This document shows positions 26,649 through 32,713 of a stretch of 64,000 nucleotides of DNA, piece by piece. The notes under the pieces are model-generated. The model made no database searches. It saw only the letters and a program-made list of their open reading frames with translations, and was not told the DNA's origin. The position numbers were made by a program, and so were the translations under genes. Source of the DNA: Eledone cirrhosa (lineage: Eukaryota); contig OZ024743.1 of the NCBI GenBank assembly GCA_964016885.1, forward strand, positions 308,946,001-309,010,000, read 5' to 3'. The stretch's first letter is position 1; each line of letters starts with the position of its first letter.

Positions 26649-26685
<37 letters not shown>

Positions 26686-26717
26686 AGATCAAAAGATGGT
26701 TAAAGGAGTTCAATATA

Positions 26718-26784
26718 TTTTATTATGCGCATTTCAAAAACAAACATCATCAAACAATAATATTTGTGTTTTCATCAGATAAAA
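26718..26784 (-). ncRNA. Type I hammerhead ribozyme (left arm)
   Basis: Reverse complement of 32447-32513. Confidence 0.8.
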
Positions 26785-28024
26785 CAGGAGAACATGATAT
26801 GAAGGCTAAAAAAAACACTTGTTGATAGTGCAGTTTTAAATCAACATATGAAAAGTGGTTTTAGATTGATGTGTGATATTGGGAAAAATATTTTATTTAG
26901 AGAGGGGGGGAGAGAAAAGGATGAAAAGGGAAGGAGATGAGAGGGAGAGATGGGTGATAGAGAGAAAGAGATAGTTTTTATAACAGAGAGGAGATATATT
27001 TTATATAGAGGGGTTGAAAACCGTTGGAAGATACTGTATAAATTAAAAATTTTGAAAATTAACGAAGGGAGGATATGTGCGAGGAAAAAATATATTATAT
27101 TTAGGGAGGGGTGGGGGTGGAAAGGATGAAAAAAAGGGGAGGAGATGAGAGTGAAGGTGGAAAGGGAGAGATGGGTGATAGAGAGAAAGAGATAGTTTTT
27201 ATAACTGAGAAAAAGATATAATGTTTTAATATAGAGAGGTTGGGAACCGTTGGAAGATAATGTATAAATTAAAGGAATTTGAAAATTAACGAAGGGAAAT
27301 TATGTATGGAGATAGAGAGAAAAAAATAACGAAGGGAGATTATGTATGGAGATAGAGAAAAAAAAAAAAAAAAAATAATAATTGTGGGTGAATATTCAAA
27401 AGGAGAAATGTAGGAATTTTAAAATTAGCAAAGAGAAAAAGTTTATGTATAGGATTTGAGAAAAATAATGTGAAGTTAGAGTTTTTATATTGAATTCATA
27501 TGTATTAATAATGAGTTCGTTGATGGGGAGAAAAAAATAATAATAAATTAAGGATGAAATTGAGATTAAAAAGATTTATGATAGAGAGAAAAAATAATAA
27601 TGATTGCGGATGAATACTCAAAATGTCAAAAACAAATGTTATTGTTTTACGAGGAGATATAATGAGGGTGATGAGTAAACGGGTATTATAGAGTGTATAA
27701 TGCCCTTTAAAGTAAGGTAGATGGGTATATTTTAAAGAATATATGAGTATATATTAAAAAAATATATAATAATAAATTAAGGATGAAATTGAGATTAAAA
27801 AGATTTATGATAGAGGGAAAAAAAATAATAATGATTGCGGATGAATATTCAAAATGTCAAAAACAAATGTTATTGTTTTACGAGAAGATAGGATGAGGTA
27901 AATGAGTAAACGAGTACTATAGAGTGTATAATGCCCTTTAAAGTAAGGTAGATGGGTATATTTTAAAGAGGTGTATGTATATGTGCCTTTGAGAAAAGAT
28001 TCTAAATTGATAAAGAATTGAATA

Positions 28025-29773
28025 TTAACTGTATACTTTGTGAAAAGTTCTATGGAATTTATGCAGGCAGATGGAAAACAAATCCGAGCGTCTATTTATT
28101 ATGGATTCTAGGTTAGAGATAATGGTAAATTTTTCATTTAGGCAGAGATTACAGATTTTAGATAGAGAACTGTTCAAGTACGAGGATGCAGAAGAAATCT
28201 TTTTCCAAAAGATGTTATATTTAATGTTTTTGTCTTTTAAGGACCATATGAGTTCTGAGAGAGCAGTGTTAGTTCTTTTAAGTTTGTATTTGAAAGATGA
28301 ATGATGATTATAGAGACGAGCTTTAAAAGAGGTGGAAGTGGAGCCAAAATAGGTGAAGGAGTTGGTGCTAGTTATAATTTTACATTCATAAATTAAGTTT
28401 TTATCGAGGCAATGGTTGTTGAGAGGACATTTATTTTTAATGCGGCAGTTGCAATTAGAGAGATTATTAATGAGTGATCTAGTGTTATCTATAGAAGGAA
28501 TTGGATTGGAGAAGTTGTTTGCGATAGGAATAATAGGAATAATAGTTTCTTGATTTAGAGTTGGATTATGAACATTTAGCGAAGTTGTGTTTGACGTTGC
28601 ATTTGGGTTTACAGAAGTTAGCCTAGGGTTTACAATGACGTCAGGAGTACTATTATTGTTATTATGAGATTCAATATTGGAAGGAAGAGATTTAGTATTT
28701 AATATTTTGTTGTTGTGTTTAGAAATGATGTTGGAAATATTGGAGGATGTAGAATACGAAAATTTAATGGTGTGTTTGTTAAATATTTTACTATAGATAT
28801 GTGAGGGAGGGAAGCATTTATTTAAGGCACTAAAAAATAATTTAGGAATATTGTTATTAATAGAGATGGAGAAAGGAGCATTATACCAGATTATGTTTTT
28901 GTATCTAGGTCTTTTATTAAAATTATTGGAATGGTTATGATTAAATATTCTACTGTAAGTTTTCCTAGAATTTGTTTCTTTATTATATTTGATTTTATCT
29001 GGATAGCCGGCTTTAGAAAGTGCGTTATTATAGTAATTGGCGTTAGCATCAAAGATGTTTTTATTAGAAGATATGTTAGATATTCTATTTCCAATATTAT
29101 TAACTATAGCATTCTTGATATTGGTAGGATGGTTAGATTTAAAGTTAACATAATTAAGATTCTCATTGTTTTTATGGTAAGGGTAATATAGGCCAGTGTC
29201 AAGATTAAGAGATACATCCAAGAAATTAGCTAGTTTGGTACTATTATCAAATTCAATTTTTAGGTTATGTTGGTTAAAGAGATTACGTATATTGTTCTTA
29301 ATAATATTAAGTTTAACTATATTGCAATTTAGGATAGTAAAGAGTCCATCGTCACGATAAATTCCACCGCGAAGTTGAGGAATTTTCCGACTCAAAGAGT
29401 TCAAAATGAAGATACCAATTAAATCAGTCAATTGGGATGAATCGGATGCTCCCATTGTGATGTCGAAGTTGTTAGAGGTATCGGCTCTGGTCCAATATTC
29501 GTTGTTGAGCTCTAGGATGGTTTTACGTGCGGTGAGGATGATGTGAAGTTCATCTGTGGTGATGTCAGAATATTTAAGTGCGAAAGATAGAGCATTATTG
29601 AGAAGTGAAGGCGAAATGGAGGAATAGTAGCTGGCAATATCGAATTGAATAAATTTTAGTTTGTTTTTATTATCCAATTTGTTGAACCAGCCAATCACTT
29701 CAGAAGTACCAAACCATAAATTTAGGTTTAAAGAAGAGCAATTAGAACTAACCTGTGGGATAATCCTATCCAA
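28025..29773 (-). CDS. PLE reverse transcriptase + C-terminal GIY-YIG endonuclease (5'-truncated; frame continues to ~29870)
   Basis: LKDHKNNF..RLIAP upstream, FDIASYY, MGASDS, YRDDGL, FLDV, CNC...CPL...C, LIY...YFGST, CNLCLNEK, NRRS. Confidence 0.92.
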   Translation of the reverse strand: MDRIIPQVSSNCSSLNLNLWFGTSEVIGWFNKLDNKNKLKFIQFDIASYYSSISPSLLNNALSFALKYSDITTDELHIILTARKTILELNNEYWTRADTSNNFDITMGASDSSQLTDLIGIFILNSLSRKIPQLRGGIYRDDGLFTILNCNIVKLNIIKNNIRNLFNQHNLKIEFDNSTKLANFLDVSLNLDTGLYYPYHKNNENLNYVNFKSNHPTNIKNAIVNNIGNRISNISSNKNIFDANANYYNNALSKAGYPDKIKYNKETNSRKTYSRIFNHNHSNNFNKRPRYKNIIWYNAPFSISINNNIPKLFFSALNKCFPPSHIYSKIFNKHTIKFSYSTSSNISNIISKHNNKILNTKSLPSNIESHNNNNSTPDVIVNPRLTSVNPNATSNTTSLNVHNPTLNQETIIPIIPIANNFSNPIPSIDNTRSLINNLSNCNCRIKNKCPLNNHCLDKNLIYECKIITSTNSFTYFGSTSTSFKARLYNHHSSFKYKLKRTNTALSELIWSLKDKNIKYNIFWKKISSASSYLNSSLSKICNLCLNEKFTIISNLESIINRRSDLFSICLHKFHRTFHKVYS

Positions 29774-31222: not shown

Positions 31223-32446
31223 TATTCAATTCTTTATCAATTTAGAATCTTTTCTCAAAGGCACATATACATACACCTCTTTAAAATATACCCATCTACC
31301 TTACTTTAAAGGGCATTATACACTCTATAGTACTCGTTTACTCATTTACCTCATCCTATCTTCTCGTAAAACAATAACATTTGTTTTTGACATTTTGAAT
31401 ATTCATCCGCAATCATTATTATTTTTTTTCCCTCTATCATAAATCTTTTTAATCTCAATTTCATCCTTAATTTATTATTATATATTTTTTTAATATATAC
31501 TCATATATTCTTTAAAATATACCCATCTACCTTACTTTAAAGGGCATTATACACTCTATAATACCCGTTTACTCATCACCCTCATTATATCTCCTCGTAA
31601 AACAATAACATTTGTTTTTGACATTTTGAGTATTCATCCGCAATCATTATTATTTTTTCTCTCTATCATAAATCTTTTTAATCTCAATTTCATCCTTAAT
31701 TTATTATTATTTTTTTCTCCCCATCAACGAACTCATTATTAATACATATGAATTCAATATAAAAACTCTAACTTCACATTATTTTTCTCAAATCCTATAC
31801 ATAAACTTTTTCTCTTTGCTAATTTTAAAATTCCTACATTTCTCCTTTTGAATTTTTTTTTTTTTTCTCTCTATCTCCATACATAATCTCCCTTCGTTAT
31901 TTTTTTCTCTCTATCTCCATACATAATTTCCCTTCGTTAATTTTCAAATTCCTTTAATTTATACATTATCTTCCAACGGTTCCCAACCTCTCTATATTAA
32001 AACATTATATCTTTTTCTCAGTTATAAAAACTATCTCTTTCTCTCTATCACCCATCTCTCCCTTTCCACCTTCACTCTCATCTCCTCCCCTTTTTTTCAT
32101 CCTTTCCACCCCCACCCCTCCCTAAATATAATATATTTTTTCCTCGCACATATCCTCCCTTCGTTAATTTTCAAAATTTTTAATTTATACAGTATCTTCC
32201 AACGGTTTTCAACCCCTCTATATAAAATATATCTCCTCTCTGTTATAAAAACTATCTCTTTCTCTCTATCACCCATCTCTCCCTCTCATCTCCTTCCCTT
32301 TTCATCCTTTTCTCTCCCCCCCTCTCTAAATAAAATATTTTTCCCAATATCACACATCAATCTAAAACCACTTTTCATATGTTGATTTAAAACTGCACTA
32401 TCAACAAGTGTTTTTTTTTTTTTAGCCTTCATATCATGTTCTCCTG

Positions 32447-32513
32447 TTTTATCTGATGAAAACACAAATATTATTGTTTGATGATGTTTGTTTTTGAAAT
32501 GCGCATAATAAAA
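32447..32513 (+). ncRNA. Type I hammerhead ribozyme (right arm)
   Basis: TTTTAT-CTGATGA-[AAACACAAATATTATT GTTT GATGATGTTTGTTTTT]-GAAA-TGCGCA-TA-ATAAAA; palindromic minimal stem III. Confidence 0.82.
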
Positions 32514-32639
32514 TATATTGAACTCCTTTAACCATCTTTTGATCTTATATTATGCATACTCCAGTCCCACAAACTGTAGAGTGCTTCTTATCCGATATCT
32601 GCATTGCTTTATTGTACTACAATAAAACTCACCTCCTAC

Positions 32640-32713
<74 letters not shown>

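Follow-up and report, generated by a model that had tools for sequence, protein, structure and literature searches.

The window analysed here, a 64,000-nt stretch of Eledone cirrhosa DNA, contains head-to-head element copies in a (TA)n tract, and raises the question of how a Penelope-like element (PLE) comes to be inserted as a palindrome with a tail at one end only. The way in which PLEs generate inverted repeats and a tail on one side has been named as an open problem (PMC8557442; PMC11167929), and the value of the present family follows from this. The features of the locus, in window coordinates, are

26300..26677, unstranded: left target microsatellite, (TA)n with interspersed C
26678..29877, minus: left arm, unit positions 717-3910; site A, its end without a tail, passes into (TA)n
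26716..26786, minus: hammerhead motif, left-arm counterpart
26849, minus: putative capped pLTR start, left-arm counterpart
28025..29881, minus: left ORF remnant covering aa 183-800 of the RT-GIY-YIG protein (800 aa), without start codon, RWT or DKT
28085..28402, minus: C-terminal GIY-YIG endonuclease domain, aa 676-781, left arm (I-TevI match 1ln0, mapped to the locus)
29373..29874, minus: unpaired 502-nt spacer, the left-arm part absent from the right arm
29875..29877, unstranded: TCG, 3-nt microhomology at the head-to-head junction
29875..32553, plus: right arm, spanning unit positions 1222-3910 and carrying a private deletion of ~20 nt at 31852/31853
29876..31222, plus: right ORF remnant, aa 353-800, starting four residues ahead of YRDD, most of the RT absent
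30845..31162, plus: GIY-YIG endonuclease domain, aa 676-781, right arm
32377, plus: putative capped pLTR transcription start, unit 3739, a family-wide truncation hot spot
32445..32515, plus: Type I hammerhead motif whose core maps to 32453 and 32496; stem III is palindromic and cleavage is predicted after 32507
32554..32641, plus: one-sided ~90-nt tail, the first unit bases, ending at site B (boundary ambiguous to 32644)
32645..32712, unstranded: right target microsatellite, (TA)n

The palindrome of 2.7-kb arms reported in the preliminary description is real. The arms meet at 29874/29875 without filler, as claimed, and the TCG there is compatible with both of them; no TA is left in between. 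The left arm, said to run about 500 bp further 5', exceeds the right by 502 nt, and this stretch separates arms (27391-29372 and 29875-31856) of 1,982 nt with 100% complementarity. The joint 29373-29875, listed among the contig joints, is a different one, representing the normal continuity of the element. A further arm match of 566 nt pairs 26808-27373 with 31853-32418. In the full arm alignment, read from inside outward, 1,978 nt are free of mismatches, 21 nt (27374-27394) occur in the left arm only and arm identity resumes out to 26678/32553. The other differences are a T8 versus T13 run and one change (27359/31867) adjoining an A/T run; homopolymer lengths and a ~20-bp indel had been noted earlier, and the right-arm deletion is seen in one of 67 matches. 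With 0 substitutions between the arms in the 2,489 unmasked nt compared, the insertion is very recent, as had been proposed.

The earlier extent of 26683-32643 needs correction: the left end lies at 26678 (+/- TA phase) and 32554-32641 belongs to the element as its tail and is not flank. The flanks of the palindrome are unrelated to each other and are not mirrored. The frames, described as uninterrupted, are open and identical over the 448 aa that they have in common; nonetheless, both are 5'-truncated with respect to the 800-aa family protein, so that neither arm is autonomous, a complete ORF with an upstream pLTR being absent from both. As the putative pLTR starts are close to the outer ends and face outward, the hairpin RNA envisaged earlier would need a host read-through transcript. 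The locus itself is an ordinary dead copy, typical of the family and not exceptional, the head-to-head layout being the family norm.

The full 800-aa ORF opens with the RT region and carries the endonuclease at its C-terminus. A structure model of the telomerase-related RT (pLDDT 80) gave TERTs as its top five Foldseek matches, and the top VIA rows were also TERT (Z of 16.2, r.m.s.d. of 2.7, 253 residues aligned). Residues 676-781 match the I-TevI catalytic domain (1ln0; Z of 10.1, r.m.s.d. of 2.5, 89 of 92 residues aligned); a single-sequence model of this domain, with a pLDDT of 38, is unusable. Pfam gave no family for either window frame or P0001, and a GIY-YIG match in one of 26 aligned members (E of 0.012); a PDB sequence search returned 0 matches, and the nearest database proteins have 30-38% identity. 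The union of a TERT-like RT and GIY-YIG in one ORF supports the earlier identification as a PLE. RWT at aa 37 occupies a column with RWK or RWR in most aligned homologues, its third residue deviating; DKT lies at aa 123 (DKG modified to DKT), a CxCx5C linker at aa 659-667, and CxxC (aa 759) and CxH (aa 787) flank the conserved E and N. There is no CCHH inside the GIY-YIG core: its strands contain one Cys only, which is not conserved.

Because of the C-terminal endonuclease, the RWT, DKT, CxCx5C, CxxC and CxH motifs and the hammerhead, the element appears to belong to the Hydra clade and not, as first labelled, to Naiad; reference PLE proteins were compared by eye as supplement text. Naiads (PMC8557442) have the same tandem/inverted layout, one-sided tail and (TA)n preference, but their N-terminal endonuclease, DKA, CCHH and absence of a canonical hammerhead are none of them true of the Eledone element. 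The C-terminal EN+ PLEs of the Hydra clade (Craig et al. 2021, PMC8557442; Hydra-1_Obim, Penelope-13_HM) likewise encode an RT followed by GIY-YIG, and the clade shares an RWK-like motif, DKT, CxCx5C, CxxC/CxH, a pLTR hammerhead and (TA)n targets. A tandem/inverted layout with a one-sided tail has already been published for PLEs, and an inverted 5'-truncated copy is listed for Penelope-13_HM (PMC8557442). The Eledone family has this Penelope-type layout (partial tandems/pLTRs, an inverted 5'-truncated copy and a one-sided tail) and prefers (TA)n across the sampled loci. It differs from the Hydra-clade elements described in PMC8557442 in its 3.9-kb unit (mostly <3 kb in the clade), its 1.34-kb 3' UTR, a ~75-aa disordered N/T/S-rich linker insert, a tail of ~90 nt rather than 30-40 nt and RWT in place of RWK. 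Hydra-1_Obim is another family, its N-terminal protein and hammerhead differing on comparison by eye; three of four motif searches of the PMC8557442 supplement were blank.

Genome-wide, exact patterns found 7,942 tail+(TA) ends and 7,113 site-A ends, some subfamily tail starts being included in the latter. Matches spanning the whole 1,850-nt query number 40, with few changes each, and full 800-aa frames occur at many loci (complete copies include L034), which bears out the part of the active-family idea that concerns intact, near-identical copies. The majority of sampled insertions are head-to-head, the same layout recurring at other loci with different junctions, and raw reads from two other samples contain both fixed family ends and opposite-strand joints. 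In a sample of 60 regions, defined by the first tail ends of C1, the facing end is inverted and tail-less in 45 and tailed in three (p of 7e-11 against 50:50), with 12 unresolved. The first 39 tail-less ends, a sample that overlaps the former in 17 cases, comprise 26 that face a tail, six that make up three A-A insertions and seven unresolved. Taken together, the two samples pair a tailed with a tail-less arm in 54 of 60 resolved insertions, the other six being A-A or B-B; 19 sampled ends are unresolved, some without a visible inverted partner. In a hand tally of 27 inverted loci that are young, the tailed arm is the longer in 15 and the tail-less arm in 12; at the Eledone locus (26678-32641) it is the tail-less one.

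The arms of one locus show 23 differences in 57,538 nt, whereas loci differ from each other by 0.224%; the 40 long loci were picked by likeness to the Eledone-locus arm. In nine of 22 non-mirrored loci both arms carry variants absent from every other sampled locus, which could also stem from gene conversion, DNA-templated copying or assembly polishing. Older copies were classed by fuzzy end motifs, reference chaining being unsuited to diverged 3' UTRs. Four loci have mirrored host flanks, and in some family palindromes kilobases of host flank are mirrored; the mirror at L046 is finite, which makes an artefact there less likely.

At the truncation hot spot, 3,104 arms carry a non-templated base ahead of unit 3739 versus 3,399 that read through, and this base is G in 1,583 of the 3,104. 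Local arms stop there in 26 of 96 cases, and in 0-1 at each of 19 control positions; 24 positions were tested, with 3700 and 3775 (false 'stops' next to homopolymer runs) and 3737/3738 (members of the hot spot) set aside. Both arms of a locus often stop at this position; the fillers differ between the two, and in some cases each arm has a G. On the DNA evidence, the untemplated G is likely to be a copied cap and unit 3739 the capped pLTR start. A hammerhead cut at unit 3739 was rejected, the predicted cut lying at 3864/5, a site that appears unused (1 of 127). The hammerhead motif is canonical by sequence pattern, with a core near-invariant across 33 variants and 98% of stem cells paired, versus 36-62% when slid; in these variants the stems contain no double compensation and covariation is within the range of shuffles. 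Rfam returned no hammerhead match and three chance miRNA matches, and minimum-energy folding of the region gave a z of -1.3.

Clade motifs, layout, youth, fixed ends and tailed/tail-less pairing are the observations from which we infer a mechanism. The locus is a very recent 5'-truncated head-to-head Hydra-clade insertion in (TA)n, probably made when each of the two cut strands primed a cDNA of its own, with RNA from a single source as template. A source tandem would be transcribed from the capped pLTR start and its RNA used uncleaved by its hammerhead. The GIY-YIG domain would nick both (TA)n strands; one 3' end would prime at site A (unit 3910; the left arm here) and the other at site B, ~90 nt downstream, to give the right arm and its tail. 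Both cDNAs, templated by one RNA molecule or by two RNAs from one source, would stop early, here at units 717 and 1222, and their ends would be joined by end-joining via the 3-nt microhomology, with gaps filled by host repair. For a Poseidon PLE in vitro, PMC11167929 reports that both strands are nicked and extended from starts at two sites flanking the tail; no difference between strands in the start site was seen there, so that strict A/B pairing is not yet reproduced. A literature search, with subscription papers outside its scope, found no paper giving such pairing. PLE insertion at large may be an obligately asymmetric two-ended reaction, in which a single complex, probably dimeric and on a single capped RNA, would direct the two DNA ends to different fixed start sites; inverted arms and one-sided tail would then arise together in one event. 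We judge this wider proposal to be evenly poised.

It is unlikely that a single primed cDNA folded on itself, or self-primed on an antisense template, and copied itself into the second arm. In favour of fold-back are the near-identity of the arms with their private variants in common, the short palindromes at some junctions and the mirrored host flanks at four loci, which it would explain, and self-priming is argued for in the accessible part of PMC3846280. However, copying a tail-less cDNA would add no tail and copying a tailed one would give nothing longer than the template, yet the tail-less arm is the longer here and in 12 of 27 loci; the double stops at unit 3739, with their different fillers and occasional paired G, also count against it. 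A rather improbable variant accepts two cDNAs from both strands and attributes the A/B asymmetry to later endonuclease trimming of one end. The tail has been ascribed to EN-mediated resolution (PMC8557442) and genomic ends do not separate a start from a trim, but direct in vitro mapping places RT starts on both sides of the tail (PMC11167929).

We consider an assembly or chimeric-read artefact very improbable, even though the search for reads across 29874, proposed at the outset, found none spanning the junction and contigs of four runs contain no bridge at 29874/29875. Long perfect palindromes are known to hamper assembly. Assembly problems are also noted in PMC8557442. Against this, the arms differ by the rare deletion and two homopolymer changes, the centre is asymmetric by 502 nt, the tail is at one end only and the flanks are unmirrored; the layout recurs elsewhere with other junctions, and raw reads show opposite-strand family joints. 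The abundance of the family and its targeting of (TA)n would permit two independent insertions back to back in one TA tract, but the absence of TA between the arms, their common source variants and the family-wide pairing make this exceedingly unlikely.

The preferred reading, separate priming by both cut strands, resembles L1 twin priming, in which the second target strand primes a second cDNA and the junction shows microhomology. In L1 the site where the second primer anneals is internal and variable, and there is no overlap between the arms, whereas both Eledone arms begin at fixed 3' sites and are duplicates of one another. PAc, the Poseidon element of Anolis, also has two fixed ends flanking the tail, AT-rich targets and a template apparently made without hammerhead cleavage, but it belongs to another clade; its start site is reported not to differ between strands, and the available portion of PMC11167929 gives no model for inverted insertions. 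The accessible part of PMC3846280 describes Adineta vaga Penelope families with an inverted pLTR, a tail at one end, microhomology junctions and asparagine-rich inserts between RT and EN; these differ in their low copy number and were read as self-priming on an antisense template.

The thousands of fresh products turn insertion into countable rules: A ends pair with B ends, the longer arm can be of either kind, each locus draws on a single source, and run-off occurs at a likely capped start. The thousands of palindromes that the family seeds could end up in annotations as MITEs, and its intact copies are usable for biochemistry. If the proposal is true, asymmetric two-ended insertion could readily be proved in this Hydra family, which is young and offers both intact 800-aa copies and products in their thousands.

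The window insertion is real, very young and non-autonomous, and has an already described layout, with two arms of a Penelope-like element (PLE) lying head to head in (TA)n. Sequence self-comparison found 27391–29372 and 29875–31856 to be fully complementary and 502 nt apart, and the arm alignment reaches outward to 26678 (left) and 32553 (right). The preliminary description of a recent insertion with few arm differences and a join free of filler was borne out: the alignment differs by 21 left-only nt, one change beside an A/T run and a T8 versus T13 run, and junction 29874/5 has no added bases, the 3 nt at 29875–29877 matching both arms. 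Both reading frames are open, as it had stated, but neither encodes a complete protein (aa 183–800 and aa 353–800 of the 800-residue family protein P0001). A natural full unit (3,910 bp with an 800-aa ORF) occurs at sibling locus L034 and defines the parts.

Features of the insertion (window positions)
26678–29877, minus strand: left arm, unit 717–3910 (comparison with the L034 unit)
29875–32553, plus strand: right arm, unit 1222–3910 (same comparison)
32554–32641: tail, first ~90 nt of the element's own unit
32445–32515 and 26716–26786: type I hammerhead motif (core and stem pairing)
27531–27969 and 26884–27305, plus mirrors: internal duplications of the 3′ UTR (self-alignment)
30560–30790 and mirror: N/T/S-rich insert, P0001 aa 581–656 (alignment and structure model)

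The 3′ UTR measures 1.34 kb, with its two internal duplications spanning ~210 bp at 93% and ~200 bp at 80%. The disordered N/T/S-rich insert lies between the RT thumb and CxCx5C, is missing in most homologues and resembles the N-rich inserts reported in the available part of PMC3846280.

The P0001 structure model (pLDDT 80) best matches telomerase RTs, and structure comparison of aa 676–781 with the I-TevI GIY-YIG domain (Z 10.1, r.m.s.d. 2.5, 89/92 aligned) places the endonuclease C-terminally. The earlier Naiad-type label must therefore be withdrawn: in the accessible text of PMC8557442, the defining traits of Naiad are an N-terminal endonuclease, DKA and absence of a canonical hammerhead, whereas P0001 has a C-terminal endonuclease and DKT123, and a type I hammerhead motif is present. 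Hydra elements in that text have RWK, DKT, CxCx5C, CxxC and CxH, a hammerhead and (TA)n targets; P0001 carries DKT123, CxCx5C659, CxxC759 and CxH787, differing in RWT37. Hammerhead stem cells are paired in 98% of cases over 33 variants versus 36–62% in slid controls; in a covariation analysis of these variants every stem change was one-sided and shuffles were not exceeded. The 36 database homologues of P0001 are 30–38% identical. Judged by eye, Hydra-1_Obim, from the accessible supplement of PMC8557442, is a different family. We regard the present one as a new Hydra-clade family, with the clade assigned by motifs and endonuclease position.

Within this family the window locus is ordinary. A search of the 3.0 Gb genome (window on contig C4) with the left frame, scoring 40 of 2,957 candidates, gave 47 matches, all at 100% rounded identity; 38 fetched stretches represent 33 sibling loci. 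By exact pattern, the genome has 7,942 tail ends with TA after them and 7,113 tail-less (site-A) ends; the latter figure takes in some tail starts belonging to one subfamily, and both miss diverged copies. Reversed-pattern controls gave 0. Palindromes of ~430 bp, in which each arm ends at unit 3738/3739, make up a large share of insertions (L069–L128); they look like MITEs yet are PLE products. Seamless tandems of two full units and one partial, with shared variants, were also seen (L044/L066, L045/L067, L059/L068), a pattern that fits template jumping via the terminal repeat (pLTR), a template in circular form or a source that is itself a tandem. Contigs matching the ORF at ~99% identity are present in sequencing runs X1 and X2 (organism A), X3 (B) and X6 (D); close relatives, mixed samples or transfer are candidate readings of these three organism labels.

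By hand tally, 27 of 34 young loci, window included, are inverted and have a tail at one outer end but not the other; L046 is inverted, tail-less and has mirrored flanks, and six have no inverted partner (two beside N gaps, one at a contig end). As these loci were chosen by likeness to the window arm, an unbiased sample was drawn from contig C1. Its first 61 listed tail ends fall in 60 regions: in 45 the opposite end is inverted, lacks a tail and lies in (TA)n (one, L109, has a second tail further out), in 3 it is another tail, and 12 are unclassified. For the first 39 ends without a tail, the opposite end is tailed in 26 cases (17 overlapping the tail-end sample); six form three A–A insertions and seven are unclassified. 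Pooled, unlike ends are paired in 54/60 classified insertions (p = 5e-11 versus 50:50). Mirrored host flanks at three of the six like-ended insertions point to a secondary event or assembly fault. Such flanks were often seen at like-ended insertions (L138/L148/L149, L046/L152/L153, L118, L135), extending ~3.3 kb at 99% for L138 (L138/L148/L149, C1:35310907–35320564) and ~1.6 kb for L046; fold-back in vivo and assembly fault are alternatives.

For the window palindrome itself an assembly artefact is very improbable. Among the contigs of four runs none crosses 29874/5, as an artefact would predict, though those runs need not carry the insertion. Against it, the right-arm deletion is seen in 1/67 matches of fetched young loci (overlapping fetches double-count some arms), the centre is asymmetric, the tail is at one end only and the flanks are unrelated. 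In raw reads from two other samples both fixed ends run into TA and opposite-strand joints have 9–48 reads, which shows for the family, if not for this particular locus, that the layout is no mere product of assembly.

A single fold-back event cannot yield both tailed-longer and tail-less-longer loci, and the tailed arm reaches further 5′ in 15/27 inverted young loci, the tail-less arm in 12/27, including the window. Arms within a locus differ at 23 of 57,538 nt (35 pairs from 23 loci, among them L046) versus 0.224% between loci (2,343 pairs), and 9/22 non-mirrored loci have variants in both arms that are absent elsewhere in the sample; the arms of a locus thus appear to share one source, to which conversion or polishing could contribute. 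At unit 3739, 26/96 local arms stop, versus 0–1 at 19 control positions. Genome-wide, with patterns picked from younger subfamilies, 3,104 arms have a non-templated base before it (G in 1,583) and 3,399 read through; the two patterns are four letters apart at their 3′ ends, and C-preceded stops fall in neither count. One older subfamily copy, L125, has a templated G there. When an RT copies a cap, it leaves a further G in front of a fixed 5′ end, so unit 3739 is likely to be the start site of the pLTR, with each arm reaching it separately. Only 1/127 arms stop at the predicted hammerhead cut, and templates therefore appear uncleaved. Of 28 junctions, ten have 1–5 nt microhomology, two are blunt, 12 contain filler, in some cases templated locally and in others lengthened artificially by neighbouring variants, and four are not anchorable; the junctions look like scars of polymerase-theta end-joining.

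Regarding the hairpin and cruciform proposed earlier, read-through RNA, if made, would pair over 2.7 kb, and the plus-strand RNA would include the right hammerhead motif. The inferred start sites lie near the element ends and point outward; transcription from the element's own promoters would therefore not run through the palindrome. With a spacer of 502 nt between the arms, a cruciform is less likely to extrude than from a perfect palindrome.

Other features were noted in the window.

Further features (window positions)
32769–34712, 35252–35806, 35936–36314, 40674–41293, 54792–55114, 26000–26300: further lopsided palindromes (self-comparison)
55430–57106, minus strand: broken ORF, 35–38% identical to P0001
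60836–61207: older copy (70%) of the family's 3′ end
25737–25936 and 36545–36822: short (TA)n-flanked element, two copies in opposite orientation, one each side of the palindrome
5140–6405, 37520–39669, 57166–58171, 62461–63477: frame remnants (translations), which we take to be of non-LTR retrotransposons
11043–11258: 27-bp tandem repeat

The lopsided palindromes lie near (TA)n, are unrelated in sequence and are probably other PLE families; hammerhead-like cores occur in two of them (40937, 54902). The broken ORF is, by its similarity, a putative second Hydra-type element.

An inverted copy with a one-sided tail is common in PLEs, its mechanism an open question in the part of PMC8557442 available; the tail there is 30–40 bp versus ~90 nt here. 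In the accessible text of PMC11167929, Poseidon protein, a predicted dimer, nicks and extends both strands, starting at two sites flanking the tail, the choice of start not differing between strands, and self-priming on an antisense template is proposed in that of PMC3846280. This family is not treated in the available text of PMC13282606 or in the accessible main text of bioRxiv 10.64898/2026.07.22.740005. The family-wide pairing of ends, with the likely cap signature, is a useful and testable addition to the open PLE mechanism.
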